Origin: a bacterium
GTDB lineage: Bacteria > Patescibacteriota > Patescibacteriia > Veblenbacterales > UBA10138
Assembly (NCBI GenBank): GCA_020057885.1
Contig: JAGVEX010000020.1
Coordinates: 1 to 57,175, forward strand
DNA: 57,175 nt
Direction of reading: 5' to 3'
A program made the position numbers and the translations under genes. Position 1 is the stretch's first letter; each line of letters opens with the position of its first letter. Positions 5,724 to 56,527 of this stretch are shown in pieces. A model generated the notes under the pieces. It saw only the letters and a list, made by a program, of their open reading frames with translations, did not search any database and was not told where the DNA came from.

Positions 5724-7157
5724 TCAGCTACCTATGGCAGAGTTATGTGACCGAATATATTCAACCGCTAACGCTTCAGTGACTAAGCGATAAAAATCAC
5801 ACATATCAGCAAATAGCTTTTGTCGCTTTTCTCCAACAGCCCGTGCCGTTACCTCCCTTGTTACATGACACTGACCACCGCATGGCCCCTCAATAATACA
5901 CCCTAAACAATATTCATCGGTTCCGGGGAAACGGTCCTTAACTATTTTGAACAAGCCACCTGTTTCTTGAAACATCTGATTAAAGTTATCAATATGCCCT
6001 ATGGGTGTAGTGGTATGGCTACATATTTTAATACTACCATCAACATTGAATTCAAGTGCTCTTCCCTCAGCAGCGGCACAAAAAGCATGGTTCCCTGTCA
6101 ACAAGCTTTCACTGGTAAGGTTTCGAAAAACACTGTCCCAAGTGCCAAAAAAATCAATGTTCTTATTGTTGGCATACTTTTTGAAGCGAATGAGTTTGTC
6201 TATCCTCGACGTTAATGGAATATCGACTAAGCTAATAAGATCATAATCGAAAGCGATTGATGTCATGCCCCTATTCGCTGCCAGATCAATAATATCAATG
6301 TCAATGAGGTCAAAGTTACCATTTGTTACTGTGATACTAAAACCGTCCAATGGATAACCAATTTCTTCTAAAAGATCAAACTTTTCCAATATGCGGTTAA
6401 AGGTACCTTTGCCCCCTTTAGTTAAACGAATTGCGTCATTAGCTCTTGAGGTACCGTCGAGTGATGTAGCGATACGTATTTGATATCTTTTAAACGCTTC
6501 AGCAATATCCCTCGTCATTAGTACCAAGTTAGTATTGATGGTGAATTCAAAAGTTAAGTCGTGCATTTCTTCACAATAGTGAATGATTTTTTCGATCACT
6601 AGCCAATTGAACAACGGCTCAGCATTTCCAAAATGGACTTTGCAAAGCGTATGTCCATTTTCTCTCATTAAAGCTGTGTAATGATCTATACATTTTTTAG
6701 CTATCTCCCAACTCATGTTGAGCTGTTTTACTGGCCTCTGGTACACGGAGAGAATTGTGTTAGTATTACCCGAAGGTTGAAAATGGAGACAATGAGCACA
6801 CCCAAAATTACAAAAATCACTAATTGCGAGTCCCATTCGATCAATTGTCTGTCTGGTGTTGACTACGGATAAATGCCGAGCTTTTTGCTTTTGCAAAAAC
6901 TCTTTCTCGTCGAAGCCTGGTTCAATGAGAAAAAAGATGCTAGCAAATTCTTGGATAGTATTTTTTGGATTACCATCACACATTTCAATAATTTCTTTTT
7001 CGGTTCTTGGTTGTTTGAAAAAATTTAAGAATCGCAAACCTTCATGGCTTACAATTTGGGGATTACCATACAATGTATGATACACCATCGCCAAGTTTGA
7101 TCTCGGATCGAATATGGTGTGTATATTCGGAGACAATTTATATTGTTTTATTGCCAT
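5724..7157 (-). CDS. Radical SAM/SPASM-domain peptide-modifying enzyme with N-terminal PqqD/RRE-like domain
   Basis: 477 aa. The CNFGCAHC motif (C116-X3-C120-X2-C123) is present. The C-terminal SPASM pattern is C-X13-G-X4-C (CAAAEGRALEFNVDGSIKIC), then C-X2-C-X5-C-X3-C (CLGCIIEGPCGGQC), then a final Cys. The first ~100 aa (IVSHEGLRFLNFFKQPRTEKEIIEMC) look like a winged-helix RRE. Confidence 0.93.
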   Translation of the reverse strand: MAIKQYKLSPNIHTIFDPRSNLAMVYHTLYGNPQIVSHEGLRFLNFFKQPRTEKEIIEMCDGNPKNTIQEFASIFFLIEPGFDEKEFLQKQKARHLSVVNTRQTIDRMGLAISDFCNFGCAHCLHFQPSGNTNTILSVYQRPVKQLNMSWEIAKKCIDHYTALMRENGHTLCKVHFGNAEPLFNWLVIEKIIHYCEEMHDLTFEFTINTNLVLMTRDIAEAFKRYQIRIATSLDGTSRANDAIRLTKGGKGTFNRILEKFDLLEEIGYPLDGFSITVTNGNFDLIDIDIIDLAANRGMTSIAFDYDLISLVDIPLTSRIDKLIRFKKYANNKNIDFFGTWDSVFRNLTSESLLTGNHAFCAAAEGRALEFNVDGSIKICSHTTTPIGHIDNFNQMFQETGGLFKIVKDRFPGTDEYCLGCIIEGPCGGQCHVTREVTARAVGEKRQKLFADMCDFYRLVTEALAVEYIRSHNSAIGS

Positions 7158-29972: not shown

Positions 29973-31028
29973 TTACACCTCTTCTGTATTTTTTGGCTTA
30001 TCTATTAATATTGGTTCAACACCGACCGCTTCACCAGAAATTCTTAAAACATCCGTATCAATATACTTAAGACGTTTAGATGCCTCGTTATAACTATCAA
30101 CCGTTCGATCCAAATTACCGCCAATTTTTTTAAAATATTCATTATACGCGGCTATGTGTTTTCCAAGCGCTTCAACATTTTTACGTATCTCTTTTGCTGA
30201 TTCCTCGATCTCCATTCCGCGTAAACCTTGAAGCACTGTCTGCAAATAGGCAAGAAAAGATGTTGGCGAAACTATAATAACCTTATACTTGCCAGCGGCA
30301 CGTTGTATAAGATTCTCCGTGTCTTCTGTTATAGCTCCTACCTTATTAATAAGAAGGTCATAATAAATAGCTTCATGTGGAATAAACATAAATGCAAAGT
30401 CAGTTGTTCCTTCTTCGGGACGGATATATTTAGATGTTTCTACAATACGATTTTTCAAATCATTTACAAACGCTTTTTCCAATCGTTCTTTTTCCGACAC
30501 ATCTCGCGCCTCAATTAATCTGTTATAATTCTCAAGTGAAAACTTCGAATCAATTGGAACAATCTTTTTATCCTTTCTAATTGAAACAAAAACGGCTGCA
30601 TCTACAATATTACCATCTTTAAAAGGGTACTGCATTTTATACATTTCTGGTGGTAAAATATTTTTCAACAATGTTTCTAAATAGTACTCACCCAAAACGC
30701 CACGTTGCTTGGGGTTCTTAAGAATATCTTGTAAACTTTGTAGCTGGTCGGCAAAATTAACCACCTGACGATTTGTTTCGTCGAGCTTTACTAAACGTTC
30801 CGTAACATCACGAATAATTTTAGCTGACTCACCAAACTGATTCTGCATCATCTTAGTAGATTCCCCTAGCTTGTTATCTAAGGTACGGGTTATCTCATTA
30901 AGCTGATTTTGCAATAGTAATAAAGAACTCCCATCAGCTTGCCCTGAACCGCGTGATTTAAGGAATAAAAATAAAGCAACAAACCCGCCTATTACGATAA
31001 TCAAAAGTATAATAAATTCCAAACTCAT
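29973..31028 (-). CDS. rmuC: DNA recombination protein RmuC
   Basis: 351 aa. N-terminal TM segment, coiled coil and a C-terminal nuclease-like region (RGVLGEYYLE...VDAAV...PIDSKFSLE...FMFIPHEAIY). Confidence 0.88.
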   Translation of the reverse strand: MSLEFIILLIIVIGGFVALFLFLKSRGSGQADGSSLLLLQNQLNEITRTLDNKLGESTKMMQNQFGESAKIIRDVTERLVKLDETNRQVVNFADQLQSLQDILKNPKQRGVLGEYYLETLLKNILPPEMYKMQYPFKDGNIVDAAVFVSIRKDKKIVPIDSKFSLENYNRLIEARDVSEKERLEKAFVNDLKNRIVETSKYIRPEEGTTDFAFMFIPHEAIYYDLLINKVGAITEDTENLIQRAAGKYKVIIVSPTSFLAYLQTVLQGLRGMEIEESAKEIRKNVEALGKHIAAYNEYFKKIGGNLDRTVDSYNEASKRLKYIDTDVLRISGEAVGVEPILIDKPKNTEEV

Positions 31029-43654: not shown

Positions 43655-44014
43655 TTAATTAACACGACTTAAAAGCATAATTATGGTTAGTGGAAAAAGC
43701 AAACACCAGCCAAGTAGTATAATAAAATACCATACTGCCGCTACTAATAAACGAATGAATTTAGCAACTAAGATAACTAATCGGGTAATCAAACTAATAG
43801 CTCGGCCAGATTTAGAATAATCCCCGTACATAGGGGTGAATAAGTGTTTGACAAAAAGCTTCAAACTTAAACGCCAGGCCGTCTCTTGCAAACCGCGCTT
43901 GCACCAAAGGCCAACCAATAATAATCCTCCGGTGTACCACCAATAAGGAAAACGCACTACATCAAGCAAAAATTCAAATATAAGCTGGCTTAGCTGTTTT
44001 AGCATTAAGGGCAT
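43655..44014 (-). CDS. Small membrane protein (3 TM)
   Basis: 119 aa. It ends 11 nt upstream of the Clp-like gene. Confidence 0.65.
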   Translation of the reverse strand: MPLMLKQLSQLIFEFLLDVVRFPYWWYTGGLLLVGLWCKRGLQETAWRLSLKLFVKHLFTPMYGDYSKSGRAISLITRLVILVAKFIRLLVAAVWYFIILLGWCLLFPLTIIMLLSRVN

Positions 44015-48814: not shown

Positions 48815-51769
48815 TTATTTTTTAATAGATACACTAATAGAAAAACTTTCAATTTCTAATTTATCATCAAAGTCATCATTTATTACTATTACGTCACTAG
48901 CTAAAGTTCCTTTGATAATAATTTCTTTATTATCCTCAACAATTTTAACAAAATTTTCCCTACAACCAATCGTCAATAATATTCTATCATGGATAGTCAT
49001 TTTCTTTTCCTTGCGCAACACATTTACCTGGCGAATAAATTCCCGCACCAAGCCAAGGGCCTTAAGTTCATCATTCATTGAAATGTCAAGTTTCGTTTCT
49101 GTACCAAAAATAACTTTTTGAACATTCACTTCTTCGGCAATGATGGCTGAAATATCTTCGTCAAATTTCACAGCTGTTGTTAAACTACCAAGCACCTGCC
49201 GCACCTTGAATCCTGTTGCGGCGCGCTGAGCCAACGCTTTTTCAACTTCTGATCTAGCTTTTTCCATTTGCTCTAACAATTCATTCTGTTTAGAACTTAT
49301 TTCTTTAACCTTAGGCCAATCTTCCAAATGCACTGATTCTTTATCTCCACCCACCCGCTGATAAAGTTCTTCAGCCACAAAAGGCATAAACGGCGCCAAA
49401 GCCAAAGCCAATTGCCGCAGTAAATAACCTAAAGTATCACGCGCTACTTCTTTATCTGCCCCCTCTTCTTTAAACCGATCACGACTACGACGTACATACC
49501 AAGTTGAAAGGTCGGTTATAAAATCCGCCAATTTTCTGCCTGCTTCGGTAATTTCATATTTATCAAAATGCTCTGTAACTTCAAAAATTGTTTTCTGCCA
49601 CAAACTTAAAATCCATTTATCTAAAATGTTATCTGATTTTGGTTCACTAACCAGTACTTTAGTATCTCCTTTATATAATTCATAAAAGGCCAACACATTC
49701 ATTAAAATAAGTAAAGTGCGTTTTACCACTTCATCCACTGCTTGTGGATCAAAATTCTTTGGTTCACCTGGCTGGTTGCCGGTATATAAATGAAAACGTA
49801 AAGCATCCACGCCATACTTGGCTATTACCTCCCACGGGTCAACAATGTTGCCCTTGGACTTGGACATTTTTTGACCATTTTTATCATTAATATGTCCAAG
49901 ACAAATTACATTTTTATAAGGCGGAATTTCTTTTATCGCTCCTGCTTTTTTAAGCAAAGTCGCTATGGCCAAAAGCGTATAAAACCAACCGCGAGTTTGA
50001 TCAATGGCTTCGGAAATATAATCTGCTGGATAGCTGTTGGCTAATTGCTCCTTGCTTCCTGGTTTATGCGGATATCCCCATTGCGCAAAAGGCATACTGC
50101 CGGAATCAAACCAACAATCAGCTACCTCTGGTACGCGCTGTGTAGTACCACCACATTTACATGGCCAAGATATTTCATCAATAAACGGCCGATGAATATC
50201 AAAATCCTGATTCATAATTCTTGATTCATGATTCGGTGCTAATTTTGCAAGCTCTTCCAAATTACCAACACACATTATTTCCTTACACTTATCACATACC
50301 CAGATTGGTAATGGCGTTCCCCAATATCTTTCGCGCGAAATAGCCCAATCTTTTACACCATCTAACCACTCACCAAAACGCCCGTGTTTAATATGTTCGG
50401 GATACCAATTAATTTTCTCATTCGCTTTTTTTAAATCTTCACGCAAAGCCGACATTTTAATAAACCACGACGGCTTAGCATAATACAAAAGCGGCGTGGA
50501 ACAACGCCAGCAAAAAGGATAGTCATGAGTATACATTTCTTCTTTAAAAATTAAACTACCCTCTGAACGGTTTTTCAAATTATCAATAATTGCATTAGTG
50601 GTTTTCTCTTCAGTTGGCTTATCCTTATGCTTCACCGGCATACCCGCAAATTCTGGCACATCTTTTGTAAACTTCCCCTCTTCGTTTACTGTATGATATT
50701 TTGGTAAACCAACTTCAGTTCCTAAATTAAAATCGTCCTCACCATACATCACGGCGGTATGGACAACACCCGTACCATCAGTTGTTGTAACAAAGTCCGC
50801 CGCATACACGCGATAAGATTTATCGTTCTGTAAAGATTTGATATCAAATAGAGGCTCATATTCTAAACCAACAAGTTGATCTCGTAAAAATTCTTTTTCT
50901 ACTATACCACCAATTCTTTTTTGTACTTCTTCAACCCTATCCTTAGCAAGGATATAAAACTCAGCTGGAATTTCATCAACTAATGGTTCTTGATTATTAA
51001 TACTCAAGACCTCGGATTTTTTAAGAACCTCTAACAGTACGTAAGTAGATTTTGGATTTATTGCCAACGCTACATTCCCTGGCAATGTCCATGGTGTCGT
51101 AGTCCACGACAATATATAAGTATTCTTTGGTAAACCATGTTCCTTTGGTTCTTTAACTTTAAACTTCACAAACACAGACGGTTCGGTAACACTCTTGTAA
51201 CCCAATGCCACCTCGTGACTAGAAAGCGCTGTGCCGCAACGCGGACAATGCGGTAATACTTTATAATCTTTATACAACAAACCAGCCTCGTGAACTTGTT
51301 TTAAAATCCACCACAAACTTTCAATATAATAATTCTCATAAGTTACATAAGGATTTTCCAAATCCAGCCAAAAACCAATGCGCTCTGTTAATTTTTCCCA
51401 ATCCGCTTTATATTTCCATACATCCTCGCGGCACCGTTCATTAAACTTGGCCACGCCGTACTTTTCAATATCTGGCTTGCCACGAAACTTTAGTTCTTTT
51501 TCCACTTGTAGCTCCACTGGCAACCCTTGCGTATCCCAACCAGCCTTACGCTCCACTTGAAACCCGCGCATAGTTTTATAACGCGGAATTAAATCTTTAA
51601 AAGCGCGTGCCAACACGTGGTGCAGCCCCGGCTTGCCATTGGCGGTAGGTGGACCTTCAAAAAAAACAAATCGGCCGGCAGGATGCGGCTTAGTTAAAGA
51701 CTTTTCAAAAATCTTATGCTCTTTCCAAAAGGCCAAAACCTTTTCTTCAAGCTCAGGAAACTTTAACAT
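48815..51769 (-). CDS. ileS: Isoleucine--tRNA ligase
   Basis: HVLARAF (HIGH-type) and KMSKSKGN motifs, plus a CP1 editing region. I place the start at the ATG giving MLKFPELEEKVLAFWKEH. The track's TTG extension (MASKVDIRG) lies in a structured leader. Confidence 0.95.
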   Translation of the reverse strand: MLKFPELEEKVLAFWKEHKIFEKSLTKPHPAGRFVFFEGPPTANGKPGLHHVLARAFKDLIPRYKTMRGFQVERKAGWDTQGLPVELQVEKELKFRGKPDIEKYGVAKFNERCREDVWKYKADWEKLTERIGFWLDLENPYVTYENYYIESLWWILKQVHEAGLLYKDYKVLPHCPRCGTALSSHEVALGYKSVTEPSVFVKFKVKEPKEHGLPKNTYILSWTTTPWTLPGNVALAINPKSTYVLLEVLKKSEVLSINNQEPLVDEIPAEFYILAKDRVEEVQKRIGGIVEKEFLRDQLVGLEYEPLFDIKSLQNDKSYRVYAADFVTTTDGTGVVHTAVMYGEDDFNLGTEVGLPKYHTVNEEGKFTKDVPEFAGMPVKHKDKPTEEKTTNAIIDNLKNRSEGSLIFKEEMYTHDYPFCWRCSTPLLYYAKPSWFIKMSALREDLKKANEKINWYPEHIKHGRFGEWLDGVKDWAISRERYWGTPLPIWVCDKCKEIMCVGNLEELAKLAPNHESRIMNQDFDIHRPFIDEISWPCKCGGTTQRVPEVADCWFDSGSMPFAQWGYPHKPGSKEQLANSYPADYISEAIDQTRGWFYTLLAIATLLKKAGAIKEIPPYKNVICLGHINDKNGQKMSKSKGNIVDPWEVIAKYGVDALRFHLYTGNQPGEPKNFDPQAVDEVVKRTLLILMNVLAFYELYKGDTKVLVSEPKSDNILDKWILSLWQKTIFEVTEHFDKYEITEAGRKLADFITDLSTWYVRRSRDRFKEEGADKEVARDTLGYLLRQLALALAPFMPFVAEELYQRVGGDKESVHLEDWPKVKEISSKQNELLEQMEKARSEVEKALAQRAATGFKVRQVLGSLTTAVKFDEDISAIIAEEVNVQKVIFGTETKLDISMNDELKALGLVREFIRQVNVLRKEKKMTIHDRILLTIGCRENFVKIVEDNKEIIIKGTLASDVIVINDDFDDKLEIESFSISVSIKK

Positions 51770-51910
51770 ACCCCGTATATCAACCTTGCTCGCCAAAAAA
51801 TAAGCGAGAGGAGTAGGTTAATGATAAATTATCTAATCTACAATTAAACATAATTAATGTTAGGAAAGTGATTTTGTCGAGACGAGCTTAAGCAAGGTTG
51901 TATTACGAGG
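51770..51910 (-). promoter_or_regulatory. Structured 5' leader of ileS (paralogue of the argS leader)
   Basis: A 7+10 bp closing helix pairs CCUCGUAAUACAACCUUGCU (51910-51891) with AGCAAGGUUGAUAUACGGGG (51790-51771). The helix ends 1 nt before the AUG. Internal hairpins are shared with 53782-53922. Confidence 0.6.
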
Positions 51911-51923
51911 CATAATATATATT

Positions 51924-51952
51924 ATAATACTGATTTTTGAGTAATTTTGCAA
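51924..51952 (-). promoter_or_regulatory. Sigma-70-like promoter of ileS
   Basis: TTGCAA (51952-51947), a 17-nt spacer, then TATTAT (51929-51924). The predicted TSS lies a few nt before the leader helix. Confidence 0.5.
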
Positions 51953-51973
51953 CTTTTAACCAACCAAACTACC

Positions 51974-52003
51974 ATCCCCCTTATTCGCGCGAATAAGGGG
52001 GAT
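51974..52003. repeat. Perfect 30-nt palindrome 3' of argS
   Basis: atcccccttattcgc|gcgaataagggggat. On the gene strand the T6 run precedes the hairpin, so this is not a canonical terminator. Confidence 0.7.
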
Positions 52004-52041
52004 AAAAAATGGAAACTCTTACTCTTTGCTCTTACTTTGCT

Positions 52042-53781
52042 TTACATCTGCTCCACTACTTCAATTCCCAAAATCTCCAAACCCTGCTTTAAAACTTCAG
52101 CGGCAGTGTTGACTAAAGTAAGTCTTAAATTTTTCAAATGCGGATTAGCGTTTAGTACCGGCGAAACTTGATAAAAATTATTAGTGCTATTAGCTAATTC
52201 ATATAAATAACCAGCCAAGAGATGTGGCCCATTCTCCTCGGCCGCGCGCAAAATAGCCTCGGGATAACGAGATATCATACGCAACATAGTAATATCGCTT
52301 GGCGTGGCCTGCTCCAAAACCGCCGCGCCAATTTTGGGTAATTTAAATTTTTTAACACTTTTTTTACCATTTTGCGCTTTGCGTAAAATACTCTTTAGGC
52401 GCACGTAGGTATATTGTAAATAGGGCGCGCTATTGCCATCGAGCGATAACATTTTATCCCAGTTGAAAGTTATATCGGTATGCCTATTCTGCGACAAATC
52501 ATTATACTTAATCGCGCCTACACCTACCACTTCTGCCACGCGTGCTTTGGCTTTGGTTGGTAATTTGACATTCTTTTTATCCACTATTTGCCGTGCCAGC
52601 AAAATAGCTTGCGCTAGCACTTCGTCTAACTTAATAATCTTACCTTCACGAGTGGCAAGTTTTTGCCCATCCTCGCCCAATACTAAACCAAACTTAATGT
52701 GTTCTAGTTTAAGATGCGGCGCATAATTAGCTCGAGCGGCTGTAGCAAACACCTGTTCAAAGTGAAGTGCCTGTTCATTAGCCACTACATAAAGCATCAA
52801 ATTTGGTTTTAAATGGCTCGCGCGGTAACGAATACTTGCAAGCTCACGCGTGGCGTAAAGCGAAGCGCCATCGGATTTTTGCACCAACATTGGCGATAAG
52901 GAATCTGATTCCAAATGCACCACTATTGAGCCATCGGCGTTTTTAATTGCTATTTTACGTTTGAGCAAATCAGCTACCACGCCCTTCAACATTGACTCAT
53001 AAAAACTCTCACCTGTAATACGATCAAATTTTATTCCTAAACGTTTGTATAAAATATCAAACTCACGCAAAGATTCACGTTTAAACCAGTTCCATAAAGC
53101 TTTATTTGTTCTATCACCCTCTTCTAGTTTGCGAAACTCTTCTTGGCCTTGTTTTTCCAAATCGGGTTTATCTTTCATCACCTCGTGAAATTTTACATAA
53201 AGCTTTAACATTTCTTCAATCGGATGTTTGTGTACGGCAGTCCTACTTCCCCATAGCTTATAAGCGGCGATTAATTTTCCAAACTGCGTTCCCCAATCAC
53301 CCAAATGATTTAAACGGATTACCTTGGCCCCTAAATTTTCATAAATATTAGCCAAAGCCGCCCCTATAATAGTAGAACGAATGTGACCAATGTGCATCGG
53401 CTTGGCAATGTTAGGCGAAGAGTATTCCACAATCACGCGCTGGCCACGCCACAACTCACGCTCTTTACGGTTAGTTAAAAGCGGCAAACTAGTAAGCAAC
53501 AATTCAGGCTTAATGGTGAAATTAATAAAACCAGGCCCGGCTATCTCTATTTTGCTAAAATTACGAATGATAAAACGTGAAGTTTTAAGTTCTTCTAATA
53601 TTGTTTCGGCGGCCTGACGTGGCAATACACCCCATTTACTGGCCACCTTAAGAGCCACGTTGGTGGTATAGTCGCCGTGCGCCAGTTCACGGCTTACCGA
53701 CACCTCAACCTCTTTGGGTGTGAGTTGATAATGCTTTTGCGCCACCTCGGCTATTTCATTTTGTAATTTTACGCTTAACAT
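52042..53781 (-). CDS. argS: Arginine--tRNA ligase
   Basis: SSPNIAKPMHIGHIRS (HIGH) motif, and an anticodon-binding C-terminus ending in IEVVEQM. I place the start at the ATG giving MLSVKLQNEI. The TTG extension MASEVDILG lies in the leader. Confidence 0.95.
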   Translation of the reverse strand: MLSVKLQNEIAEVAQKHYQLTPKEVEVSVSRELAHGDYTTNVALKVASKWGVLPRQAAETILEELKTSRFIIRNFSKIEIAGPGFINFTIKPELLLTSLPLLTNRKERELWRGQRVIVEYSSPNIAKPMHIGHIRSTIIGAALANIYENLGAKVIRLNHLGDWGTQFGKLIAAYKLWGSRTAVHKHPIEEMLKLYVKFHEVMKDKPDLEKQGQEEFRKLEEGDRTNKALWNWFKRESLREFDILYKRLGIKFDRITGESFYESMLKGVVADLLKRKIAIKNADGSIVVHLESDSLSPMLVQKSDGASLYATRELASIRYRASHLKPNLMLYVVANEQALHFEQVFATAARANYAPHLKLEHIKFGLVLGEDGQKLATREGKIIKLDEVLAQAILLARQIVDKKNVKLPTKAKARVAEVVGVGAIKYNDLSQNRHTDITFNWDKMLSLDGNSAPYLQYTYVRLKSILRKAQNGKKSVKKFKLPKIGAAVLEQATPSDITMLRMISRYPEAILRAAEENGPHLLAGYLYELANSTNNFYQVSPVLNANPHLKNLRLTLVNTAAEVLKQGLEILGIEVVEQM

Positions 53782-53922
53782 ACCCAGTATATCAACTTCG
53801 CTCGCCAAAATTTAAGCGAGAGAAGTAAATTGATAATAAGTGATCTAATCTTGAATTTAACATAATTGGTGTTAGGATAGTTATTTTGTCACCAAGCTTA
53901 AAAGCGAAGTTGTATTACTGGG
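53782..53922 (-). promoter_or_regulatory. Structured 5' leader of argS (paralogue of the ileS leader)
   Basis: The closing helix pairs CCCAGUAAUACAACUUCGCU (53922-53903) with AGCGAAGUUGAUAUACUGGG (53802-53783). The geometry matches ileS, with compensatory changes. Confidence 0.6.
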
Positions 53923-53933
53923 ATAACTACTTC

Positions 53934-53961
53934 ATTATAAAGGTTTTTGTTAAATTGGCAA
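53934..53961 (-). promoter_or_regulatory. Sigma-70-like promoter of argS
   Basis: TTGCCA (53961-53956), a 16-nt spacer, then TATAAT (53939-53934). Confidence 0.55.
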
Positions 53962-53968
53962 AATAAAA

Positions 53969-53992
53969 ACGTCCCACCATACGATGGGACGT
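53969..53992 (-). terminator. Intrinsic terminator of infC-rpmI-rplT
   Basis: acgtccca-N8-tgggacgt, with TTTTTATTTT following on the minus strand. Confidence 0.75.
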
Positions 53993-54006
53993 CTCAATCT
54001 CAAATT

Positions 54007-54354
54007 TTACTTTTTCACAGCTTCCACTAACTTCTTAAACACTGCCGGATATTCTCGAGCCAACTGTGATAGTACCTTTCTATCCATCTCAATTTTAGCC
54101 TTCTTTAGCAAGTTAATGAACTTGCTATAAGACAAACCATATTCTCTTACCGCGGCGTTAAGCTGAATTTGCCACAATACTCTAAAATTCGCTTTTTTAT
54201 CGCGCCTATGAGCAAAAGCGTGTACGCCAGCTTTGCGGGCAGCTACTTTAGCTGCAGCAATCTTACTCTTGCGCCCCCATCTATAACCCTTGGTGCGTTT
54301 TAAAAGGTTCTTACGTCTTTTGGAATGCATTACTCCTCTTTTTACACGTGACAT
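54007..54354 (-). CDS. rplT: 50S ribosomal protein L20
   Basis: 115 aa. MSRVKRGVMHSKRRKNLLKRTKGYRWGR... Confidence 0.96.
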   Translation of the reverse strand: MSRVKRGVMHSKRRKNLLKRTKGYRWGRKSKIAAAKVAARKAGVHAFAHRRDKKANFRVLWQIQLNAAVREYGLSYSKFINLLKKAKIEMDRKVLSQLAREYPAVFKKLVEAVKK

Positions 54355-55577: not shown

Positions 55578-55959
55578 TGGTGGAGGTGACGGGTGTTACA
55601 CCCGTGTCTAGCTATGCAACTCACGCTCAGGTCCAGGTTCAGTGCCGCTGATACTGAAAATGAATAAAGCGGCACAAAAATTCATTTCAGTTTGCCTTGT
55701 AATTTCTCGGTGTTGGCACCAAGACTAATACCAACTCCATACTCGATTAATAACGCCCCGCTAAATTATCGAGTATCATTTAGCGAAACGCTGCTAGCCC
55801 TTAAGCTAAAGCAGGAGCGAAGGAAAATGATGCAAAAGCATTATTTACCTTAGCGACAAATGATTTGGCATTTGTAAGTTGATAGCTTTTTTAGGCAGAC
55901 TATCGACTGCCACCTGCTAAACGCAAATTTACGTTAGCTATCGAATTGTAAACACCCCC
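55578..55959 (-). ncRNA. ssrA: tmRNA (transfer-messenger RNA)
   Basis: The 5' end GGGGGUGUUUACAAUUCGAUAGC pairs with the 3' end CACCUCCACCA, giving a 7-bp acceptor stem with a G3-U wobble and an encoded CCA. The T-arm is ACGGG-UGUAACA-CCCGU. The internal tag frame ends ...AFASFSFAPALA-UAA. It lies adjacent to smpB. Confidence 0.9.
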
Positions 55960-56070
55960 CGAGGTTAGAAATCCTAAATCCGAAATCCTAATACCCAAAC
56001 TTTAGGAATTTGAAATTTGGATTTGTTTAGGATTTAGATATTAGAGTTTAGGATTTTAATCAAACCTCGG
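55960..56070. repeat. AT-rich palindromic intergenic repeat, copy C, closed by cgaggtt / aacctcg
   Basis: Positions 56016-56051 are identical over 36 nt to 1785-1820. The outer 7-bp stem pairs cgaggtt (55960-55966) with aacctcg (56064-56070). It fills the smpB-ssrA gap. Confidence 0.75.
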
Positions 56071-56077
56071 TGAATGT

Positions 56078-56527
56078 TTACCTAAGTTTTAAAGAACTTT
56101 TAATTTCTCTTTCTACTTCTCGTTTGCGAATGCTGACGCGTTTATCATAACGGCTTTTGCCCTGCGCCAACCCTAATTCGACTTTCACAAACCTGTGCGT
56201 AGTATAAACAGAAAGTGGCACTAGTGTCAAGCCCCGTTCTTTTATTTTTCCCAAAAGATAAGCCAGCTCGCTGTGTTTTAATAAAATTTTTCTATCGCGC
56301 AGTGGATCATAAACTGCTTCCGCGCGCTTGGCTGGCGGATAGGCCGCAATGTTCATACCAGTAAGCCAAAGCTCTCCGCCCTTGGGAATTACGTAAGCGC
56401 CCTGCAAATTCACTCGCCCGCCTTTGGCAGATTTTACTTCTGCGCCAGTCAATACCAAACCAGCCTCCTTTTTCTCGAGGATTTTATAATCGTGCAGAAC
56501 GCGGCGGTTTTGAGCTAAGGTTGGCAT
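56078..56527 (-). CDS. smpB: SsrA-binding protein SmpB
   Basis: 149 aa. NRRVLHDYKILEKKEAGLVLTGAEVKS... Confidence 0.95.
   Translation of the reverse strand: MPTLAQNRRVLHDYKILEKKEAGLVLTGAEVKSAKGGRVNLQGAYVIPKGGELWLTGMNIAAYPPAKRAEAVYDPLRDRKILLKHSELAYLLGKIKERGLTLVPLSVYTTHRFVKVELGLAQGKSRYDKRVSIRKREVEREIKSSLKLR

Follow-up and report, generated by a model that had tools for sequence, protein, structure and literature searches.

A palindromic, insertion-like cassette that abuts start codons in Patescibacteria and carries its own upstream reading frame

In an uncultured member of the Patescibacteria (GenBank assembly GCA_020057885.1, contig JAGVEX010000020.1), the arginyl- and isoleucyl-tRNA synthetase genes argS and ileS are each preceded by a copy of the same hairpin-forming sequence, which ends one nucleotide before the ATG. 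A first-pass annotation of this contig, whose 57,175 nucleotides we refer to as the window, had described the two copies as a leader RNA family shared by two different aminoacyl-tRNA synthetase (aaRS) genes. We find that the same cassette precedes many unrelated genes and that argS and ileS of closer relatives do not have it; the two leaders are not an aaRS riboswitch or a new T-box class. On balance, we favor a reading in which the cassette is a palindromic insertion resembling a miniature inverted-repeat transposable element (MITE). It would restore the start codon on insertion, and ribosomes would reach the gene through termination and reinitiation at the end of an upstream open reading frame (uORF) that the cassette itself carries.

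The two genes lie head to tail on the window minus strand; each has a ~145-nt leader and a sigma-70-type promoter, with a terminator-like hairpin farther 5' (Table 1). The leaders are paralogous, as first proposed: a direct repeat of 116 nt (51763-51878 for ileS, 53775-53890 for argS) is 84% identical, and all seven of the identical blocks that had been quoted are found in both. One inverted repeat falls in each leader (I6 and I12), with ~20-nt arms ~100 nt apart. A 23-nt block, CTCTCGCTTAAATTTTGGCGAGC, occurs within the window in these leaders only, and chance matches to it appeared in 0/100 shuffles. Neither nhmmer nor a covariance model (R1, introduced below) detected a third copy in the 57-kb window, and the model scan confirmed that the other synthetase genes there, pheS, pheT, metG, and glyRS, are without the element. 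The span originally given for the argS leader, 53782-53961, was too long: the repeat runs from ~53926 to 53782, and the remainder includes the promoter (TTGCCA, TATAAT). The -10 box of argS ends 11 nt before the basal helix, P1, which would put the cassette at the extreme 5' end of the transcript.

The cassette is predicted to form a rod that consists, from base to tip, of a 7-bp helix (P1a), a 3x3 AUA/AUA internal loop, a 9-bp helix (P1b), a bulge on the 5' side, a further helix of 8-9 bp (P2), and an AU-rich apex. The folding energies of the window leaders are far lower than those of shuffled sequences, with z scores of -3.7 (argS) and -5.1 (ileS). The first-pass annotation had correctly described both the internal loop and the lone U that separates the helix from the AUG, and its claim that the closing helix is kept by compensatory changes holds for the 7-bp/3x3 loop/9-bp arrangement. 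It had counted at least four compensatory pairs between argS and ileS. Three of these are double-sided, in alignment columns 8/153 (C-G to A-U), 19/141 (C-G to U-A), and 21/139 (U-A to C-G); the fourth, in column 7/154, is a one-sided change from a U-G wobble to a C-G Watson-Crick pair.

Before which genes does the cassette occur? A scan of GTDB species genomes with the hairpin pattern gave eight loci, five of them with real copies. These copies precede mreB, rplM, a membrane-protein gene, ileS, and argS in the metagenome-assembled genome (MAG) CAZGYI01 and rplF in a Veblenbacteria MAG. With a looser pattern, JGI metagenomes yielded copies before rplB, rplC (a tandem pair), rpmJ, rplQ, and genes for a glycosyltransferase and for pilT-like, SIS-domain, and GIY-YIG proteins. 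We then built R1 from 15 copies. With the model we recovered a diverged CAZGYI01 copy before rpmJ, ~210-nt composites before rpsS and rplW, one decayed remnant, and, at locus L029 (loci are designated L001, L002, and so on), a copy that lies between recO and the gene for a 630-aa protein. Viral contigs gave nine pattern matches, one of which was a real copy (L034, before secA). The ribosomal proteins whose genes are preceded by the cassette are thus L2, L3, L6, L13, L17, L23, L36, and S19. Multiple copies occur per genome, with at least six over four contigs of CAZGYI01 and at least six in one S10 operon, that of L024.

Every copy is oriented in the same direction as the downstream gene and ends at the ATG of that gene. 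The 3' end reads GGG-T-ATG in 20 of the 23 copies, the exceptions being GGGATG, GGGTATATG, and GGGCATG. Intact copies of the basic type measure 145-149 nt even where their interiors cannot be aligned; one diverged copy measures 156 nt, and the composites measure ~210 nt.

The rod is maintained across the family. Using a model-based alignment with 15 distinct rows (A2), we found P1a to be 94% and P1b 97% paired, with both sides altered in five pairs; column 8/153 takes all four Watson-Crick types (A-U 8, C-G 5, G-C 1, U-A 1). The 19-nt terminal arms, CCCAGTAATACAACTTCGC and GCGAAGTTGATATACTGGG, are complementary save for three central nucleotides. P2 joins distant strands, 5' CUCG(A)CAAAA and 3' UUUUG(G)CGAG, and in A2, which is imperfectly aligned in this region, both sides are altered in six of its nine pairs. 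The changes can also be followed by eye, with UCGCCAAAG/CUUUGGCGA in L018, CGCAAAUAA/UUAUUUGCG in L019, CUCGCAAAA/UUUUGCGAG in the L024 copy before the L2 gene (L024_L2), GGGCAAAA/UUUUGCCC in L024_L3a, and AGGCCU/AGGCCU in a variant subfamily. Each of five whole-structure measures exceeded 499 or 500 of 500 shuffles and every slid control. A cross-matrix of P2 strands computed with RNAduplex was not cleanly diagonal because subfamilies share GCUCG/CGAGC, and column pair counts were used instead.

Two other pairings could compete with the rod. A local 3' hairpin, CUCGC/GCGAG, is 90% paired without covariation and is possibly an alternative pairing rather than an established structure. The conserved 5'-side bulge is complementary, by eye, to GCTTAA just 5' of the P2 3' strand, and this too is a possible alternative state; on geometric reasoning it would be incompatible with P2 because the linkers are too short. 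The helix arms are near invariant. Interiors share only 50-80% identity and align poorly from one subfamily to another; the apical region varies in sequence at nearly constant length. The only conserved unpaired parts are the AUA/AUA loop and the TAAGCT bulge. This is the reverse of the pattern generic to ligand-binding riboswitches, in which a conserved pocket is carried by variable helices.

What points to insertion is the comparison of occupied and unoccupied sites. The order rplT-argS-ileS-recO is conserved among relatives. In L005, whose ArgS is 93% identical to that of the window, argS has the cassette with unchanged arms and an interior that is 78% identical. Both argS and ileS are without it in L001, L002, L007, L027, L029, L031, and L033. 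Most of these cassette-free relatives have a near-leaderless layout, in which ~8-10 nt separate a TATAAT or TATACT box from the ATG; the region upstream of L031 argS is longer. Empty sites read ...GTTATG (argS), ...ATTATG (ileS), and ...TAGTTATATG (after recO). The filled argS site of the window reads ...GTTAT-(CCCAG...CTGGG)-TATG, and filled sites generally have the form TAT(G)-element-TATG. Hence TAT(G) occurs once at empty sites and twice at filled ones, the duplicated length being 3 or 4 nt depending on the copy. Since UAUG can pair with itself, the assignment as a target-site duplication is not fully unambiguous. Among 23 copies, the 5' flank is TATG in 13 and TAT in 6. CATA, which would pair perfectly with the 3' UAUG, is seen in none of them, so that duplication fits better than selection for pairing. 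The 5' TATG also sits where the original start would be expected: 7-9 nt after the -10 box in window ileS, L014 ileS, L018, and L022, and next to an upstream stop after rplD (TAG-TATG) and after recO (TAA-A-TATG).

Presence and absence are reciprocal between sister genomes. When the flanks of L014 and L029 (ArgS 83.5% identical) were aligned, argS and ileS were filled in L014 and empty in L029, and the site after recO was filled in L029 and empty in both L014 and the window. At the tandem junction, CTGGGTATGCCCAG, neighboring copies share a single TATG. Three copies (L014_argS, L012, and L025) have other repeats nested inside them. The interior of the L014 argS copy is 88% identical to that of the L014 ileS copy and 72% identical to that of the window argS copy.

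The cassette contains a reading frame. In 17 of 18 copies a uORF of 20-31 codons begins at a conserved central UAUG in the apex and runs along the 3' strands of P2 and P1b. Shuffling the interior with dinucleotide composition preserved gives such a frame with a frequency of 0.03-0.2 per copy (0.096 for the argS copy and 0.07 for the ileS copy), and the uORF recurs over ~9 subfamilies whose interiors barely align. In the main subfamily of 12 copies, to which both window copies belong, the stop lies 10 nt 5' of the gene ATG, and in all of these but L005 it is a UGA within GUUGAUAUAC. L005 has UAA instead and retains the stop even though a P1 pair is broken. In other subfamilies the uORF ends between -12 and -24 or between +4 and +13 relative to the gene ATG. 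The uORF is out of frame with the downstream gene, and all copies lie 5' of the annotated start. Both window uORFs contain Arg codons; the argS copy has one Ile codon and the ileS copy has none.

Is it the peptide that is conserved? The three codon positions have similar numbers of substitutions (111/100/110), which indicates that the open frame is conserved and the peptide is not. In some copies a second ATG is available in the 5' flank. Of 10 copies, 4 have a frame from this ATG that is open across the whole element; shuffles give such a frame with a probability of 0.11-0.17 for each copy (about 0.12 expected), so that this is a weak hint. A conserved small protein was rejected both by the even substitutions and by the lack of a profile match for the four 43- to 44-aa frames among 5.8 billion proteins.

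The start-codon context suggests how such a frame might matter. Most of the 45 ORF starts in the window are without a Shine-Dalgarno (SD)-like motif at a usable distance, and several ORFs, such as 29973-31028 and 43655-44014, have a TATAAT-like box 6-8 nt 5' of the ATG. Judged from sequence, these features suggest that leaderless or near-leaderless initiation is widespread in the source organism. Given that most genes lack an SD and many look leaderless, P1 would be expected to hinder direct initiation at the gene AUG. The predicted unpaired fraction averages 0.52 at the central AUG and 0.40 at the gene AUG, a modest difference, with the central AUG the higher in 13 of 16 copies.

We therefore envisage the following course of events, each step of which is conditional. 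The cassette would insert at a start-codon TATG, duplicating or regenerating it, and would later be kept or cleanly lost. The stable P1, ending 1 nt before the AUG, would hinder direct initiation there. Initiation would take place instead at the central AUG, which is accessible, or in some copies at the 5' AUG that has been retained. Ribosomes would then open P2 and P1 as they translate the uORF, terminate beside the gene AUG, and reinitiate. Such coupling would keep essential genes expressed and the untranslated gap in an operon short. The hairpin may serve the element itself (mobility, clean excision, RNA stability) or may give incidental control of expression; it would not sense Arg or Ile. 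A fuller version of this reading we put forward only tentatively: a self-propagating start-codon cassette that inserts at TATG, regenerates ATG, keeps essential ribosomal-operon genes translated by its uORF relay, and is adapted to the SD-poor, leaderless initiation of the candidate phyla radiation. In a bolder variant, the whole rod may be skipped or removed at the RNA level, with the retained 5' TATG context working as before.

How does the cassette compare with known elements? It is small, has terminal inverted repeats, and shows duplicated flanks at filled relative to empty sites, dispersed copies, and insertion polymorphism, all of which are features of MITEs. Correia elements (CREE or nemis), and likewise ERIC and RUP, are ~100-160 bp long, have terminal inverted repeats of ~20-26 nt, and form a long hairpin in mRNA, as the cassette does. 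Like Correia elements, the cassette is dispersed near gene starts, co-transcribed, polymorphic between related genomes, and flanked by short duplications. Correia-like MITEs have documented effects on the expression of neighboring genes (PMC2649163, PMC10969869). Unlike Correia elements, the cassette always has the same orientation, lies directly against a start codon, and restores the ATG; its flank duplication is TAT(G), not TA; it contains a conserved uORF that ends beside the gene AUG; its copy number appears low; and no element-borne promoter or IHF site was seen in it. Rickettsia palindromic elements (PMC10969869) offer a second parallel, being ~150-bp palindromes of reduced genomes that carry an open frame and are tolerated at essential genes through compatibility with translation. 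These elements, however, lie in frame inside coding regions and add a conserved peptide, whereas the cassette lies before the start, its frame stops 10 nt upstream, and its peptide is not conserved. We rejected assignment to this class, since the internal frame stops before the ATG and the insertion is not in frame.

Termination-reinitiation coupling is established in bacteria and archaea (PMC6728339). Coupling leaders resemble the cassette in having a short frame that ends a few nucleotides from an SD-less start beside a helix, and the cassette has the conserved uORF with a stop at reinitiation distance from the main start that characterizes them. Known coupling leaders are single-locus arrangements or overlapping gene pairs; the cassette is repeated and apparently insertable, and its coupling is a prediction. 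What would define the cassette, a position directly against a start codon that it restores, together with a uORF of its own, defines none of these three systems (Correia, Rickettsia, uORF coupling). The words 'start codon' do not appear in the 2024 MITE review (PMC10969869), and we found nothing relevant to a Patescibacteria repeat or leader of this kind in a literature search or in Rfam.

Two further candidates were rejected by inspection. An internal promoter is not indicated, since no -10 box lies at a workable distance from the TTGACA-like P2 strand. An integron attC site, which would have RYYYAAC and GTTRRRY core sites at the hairpin base, extrahelical bases, and a place at the 3' end of a mobile gene cassette, is not indicated either: the base of the hairpin is CCCAGTA/TACTGGG, the AAC/GTT triplets are on the inner side of the internal loop, and the context is one of syntenic housekeeping operons, not cassette arrays.

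Several observations weigh against an insertion with a translational relay. The sample of ~23 copies is small, and it is biased because the pattern scans demanded conserved arms or a conserved hairpin. Counted by the identity of the downstream gene, 14 of ~22 occupied sites precede translation genes, and two unrelated lineages both have argS, ileS, and rpmJ occupied; random selfish insertion would fit this distribution less well than would a regulon or a strong preference for certain sites. Precise deletion of a functional leader of long standing would explain clean empty sites just as well. Among the loci searched there was no transposase and no autonomous partner whose ends match, and a fuzzy arm search of the window and L001-L026 for a longer element with cassette ends returned arms at cassette spacing only. 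In P1, G-U pairs (~8) are not clearly more numerous than A-C mismatches (~6), so pairing could be selected on RNA or on single-stranded DNA. The uORF ends at -24 or +11 in the L029/L010_L36 subfamily and at about -27 in the L034 copy, not at -10, and the in-frame fusion of a retained 5' ATG to the uORF (43-44 codons, in four copies) is only weakly above chance. The accessibility of the gene AUG (0.40) falls inside the ordinary range for window genes (0.46 +/- 0.13), and sequestration of this AUG by P1 is accordingly to be taken as presumptive.

Could the cassette instead be a cis-regulatory leader? We consider this the main rival and a serious possibility, though on the unlikely side. Under this alternative it would serve a translation or growth regulon (ribosomal proteins, ArgRS, IleRS, SecA, MreB), with copies arising by duplication and absences representing losses. 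A protein, ribosomes, or a small molecule may act in trans by binding the rod, or translation capacity may be reported by the uORF; alternative pairings (P2, the local hairpin, bulge-GCUUAA) may set the level of reinitiation that reaches the gene. The preponderance of translation genes and the occupation of argS, ileS, and rpmJ in distant lineages both favor a regulon, as do the strict orientation and AUG distance of all copies, the covariation of P1 and P2, the mutually exclusive pairings (seen by eye and in minimum free energy folds), and a length held at 146-149 nt while the interior varies freely. Yet a regulatory leader would not readily explain three tandem copies before rplC, elements nested in copies, a solo arm before a GIY-YIG gene, or reciprocal presence and absence in L014 and L029. 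Copies at the same gene in different genomes resemble each other less than do paralogous copies within one genome, and conservation is lowest in the interior, the expected place for a ligand pocket. Unrelated genes are served as well (pilT-like, glycosyltransferase, GIY-YIG, membrane proteins), and there is no Rfam match.

A processing site is improbable as a full account. Here an RNase III-like nuclease would cut P1 and free a near-leaderless mRNA like those of relatives, the uORF being secondary; by analogy, the element would resemble Correia elements or rRNA intervening sequences. P1 is a helix of ~20 bp that contains a conserved internal loop and comes within 1 nt of the AUG, the same genes in relatives have promoters only ~10 nt before the ATG, and RNase III is documented to cut the terminal inverted repeats of co-transcribed Correia elements (PMC10969869, PMC2649163). 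However, processing leaves unexplained both the open frame that ends beside the AUG in 17 of 18 copies and the L005 stop that is kept at the cost of a P1 pair. RNase III-type cleavage could be compatible with either the insertion or the regulatory view.

Least probable by far is a leader that is specific to ArgRS and IleRS and responds to an amino acid or a tRNA, whether in the manner of a T-box or otherwise: argS and ileS are the sole carriers within the window, a hairpin loop contains UGG, and the helix adjoins the AUG, but no Arg-versus-Ile specifier position appears in the aligned copies, many non-aaRS genes are preceded by the cassette, argS and ileS of relatives are without it, and there is no T-box or other Rfam match at E <= 10. 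T-box leaders are likewise structured, lie 5' of ileS and argS, and have a helix able to occlude the start region, as in the translational ileS T-boxes of Actinobacteria. Unlike them, the cassette is not limited to amino-acid genes and has no Stem I specifier or T-box bulge. At the gathering threshold, Rfam 15 identified only transfer-messenger RNA (tmRNA) in the whole window, and at E <= 10 the region 51700-54050 gave only noise (for example, MIR828 and snR85). T-box (RF00230) was rejected on these grounds, the cmscan search giving no match and the cassette preceding ribosomal protein genes, mreB, and secA; these contexts contradict a T-box-like reading. The data do not support a leader family peculiar to aaRS genes or a regulator tied to Ile and Arg charging. 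The first-pass annotation had remarked that a regulator common to both is not obvious and had proposed a search for a specifier-like position that tracks the amino acid; in the aligned argS and ileS copies, no position separates Arg from Ile copies in a codon-like manner. It had also named in advance the outcome that would tell against it, a generic repeat unrelated to aaRS genes, and this is essentially what the pattern scans and the covariance model returned.

Table 1. Features of the argS and ileS cassette copies and their surroundings in the window
Feature	Position	Strand	Details
argS cassette copy	53782..53926	-	TTAT flank, CCCAG...CTGGG, T, then ATG 53779-53781; covariance model R1, 149.9 bits
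ileS cassette copy	51770..51914	-	TATG flank, CCTCG...CGGGG, T, then ATG 51767-51769; covariance model R1, 155.8 bits
Terminator-like hairpin after rplT (L20), 5' of argS promoter	53966..53995	-	Terminator scan: 13 pairs plus T run
argS promoter	53934..53961	-	TTGCCA 53956-53961, 16 nt, TATAAT 53934-53939; consensus match 11/12
argS P1 5' arm	53904..53922	-	CCCAGTA / ATA / CAACTTCGC
argS P1 3' arm	53783..53801	-	GCGAAGTTG / ATA / TACTGGG
argS 5'-side bulge, conserved, P1-P2 junction	53892..53903	-	TTTTAAGCTTGG
argS P2 5' strand	53883..53891	-	TGACAAAAT
argS P2 3' strand	53802..53811	-	ATTTTGGCGA; doubles as 3' half of competing local hairpin CTCGC/GCGAG (53806-53820)
argS uORF	53792..53863	-	23 codons, MLNSRLDHLLSIYFSRLNFGERS, then stop; start is the central TATG; TGA over P1b end and internal loop, 10 nt before argS ATG
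argS coding sequence	52042..53781	-	579 aa; true start ATG 53781
Terminator-like palindrome after argS	51972..52005	-	15 pairs; inverted repeat I4
ileS promoter	51924..51952	-	TTGCAA, 17 nt, TATTAT (overlaps TATAAT 51921-51926); few nt before 5'-flank ATG
ileS uORF1	51860..51913	-	17 codons, MPRNTTLLKLVSTKSLS, then stop; from 5'-flank ATG (presumed original start); stop 8 nt before uORF2
ileS P1 5' arm	51892..51910	-	CCTCGTA / ATA / CAACCTTGC
ileS P2 5' strand	51871..51881	-	CTCGACAAAAT
ileS uORF2	51780..51851	-	23 codons, MFNCRLDNLSLTYSSRLFFGEQG, then stop; TGA 10 nt before ileS ATG
ileS P2 3' strand	51789..51798	-	TTTTGGCGAG
ileS P1 3' arm	51771..51789	-	GCAAGGTTG / ATA / TACGGGG
ileS coding sequence	48815..51769	-	984 aa; true start ATG 51769

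The gene starts in Table 1 differ from those of the ORF list. We took ATG 53781 as the argS start because the query read from this ATG is covered in full (100%) by ArgS homologues of 576 aa; the ileS start is inferred to lie at 51769, where the N terminus MLKFPELEE agrees with IleS starts in relatives. A TTG inside the cassette and in frame with the gene (53782-53808 and 51770-51796) leads ORF finders to add nine spurious residues, MASEVDILG or MASKVDIRG. The N-terminal MAS(K/E)VDI(R/L)G that the two synthetases seem to have in common is thus, as had been suspected, an artefact derived from the repeat. The same extension is seen in two database ArgS entries, P0001 (588 aa) and P0045 (578 aa). 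The named close matches to the window ArgS are from Candidatus Kerfeldbacteria, within the Patescibacteria.

Several loci merit description in their own right. The S10 operon of L024 (2596-6300, minus strand), from a metagenome, has an element at nearly every junction examined: a degenerate copy and two intact copies before rplC, a standard copy before rplB, and, before rplW and rpsS, a 210-nt composite with extra CCAGTACT...AGTACTGG hairpins. The argS copy of CAZGYI01 (L014:7095-7393, minus strand) contains a GC-rich insert of ~150 nt with two strong hairpins (ccccaatgcttggcattgggg and catacccatatgcttggcatatgggtag) and TTGAC-repeat flanks; the insert seems to belong to a second family of small repeats, lodged inside the cassette. 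At L025:981-1238 (minus strand) the nested element is a ~110-nt hairpin with ends, GCCCAGTACC ... GGTATCTGGGC, that resemble the CCCAGTA termini of the cassette; right after this copy, a solo 5' arm (CCCAGTAACAAAACC) is joined to the start of the GIY-YIG gene. The copy at L012:710-924 (minus strand) includes an extra 60-nt hairpin.

L008, L010, L012, and L014 correspond to CAZGYI010000003, 16, 53, and 1, respectively, of a MAG titled 'uncultured Gammaproteobacteria bacterium.' Its ArgS is 83.5% identical to that of L029 and 57.6% identical to that of the window, and its ArgS, IleS, and gene order are Patescibacteria-like; from these sequences the taxonomic label looks wrong.

Elsewhere in the window, a full-length tmRNA gene (RF00023, 76.6 bits) at 55578-55959 (minus strand) adjoins smpB (56078-56527, minus strand). 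The gap between them contains, at 55969-56056, a 32-nt imperfect inverted repeat of AAATCCTAAATCC-like units (I1, I7). The gene order smpB ... infC-rpmI-rplT-argS-ileS-recO recurs in all relatives compared. A conserved gene of ~120 aa with no Pfam match lies between rplT and argS at L005:9426-9791 and L007:2962-3315; the window does not have it. A radical SAM/SPASM peptide-maturase-like gene at 5724-7157 (minus strand) has weak, sub-threshold matches to several families of maturases of ribosomally synthesized and posttranslationally modified peptides (RiPPs), which hints at a small modified-peptide locus in a reduced genome.

In place of a riboswitch, then, the argS and ileS leaders reveal a repeat family defined by its exact position at the start codon, including the start codons of essential ribosomal protein genes. 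One consequence is practical: gene callers wrongly lengthen proteins downstream of the cassette by nine residues, and the MASEVDILG-like artefact peptide is a possible search tag for cassette-preceded genes. If the mechanism that we propose is true, selfish DNA can settle, even in very small genomes, at the point where a gene is most sensitive, and the cassette would offer a natural handle on SD-less translation starts in Patescibacteria.

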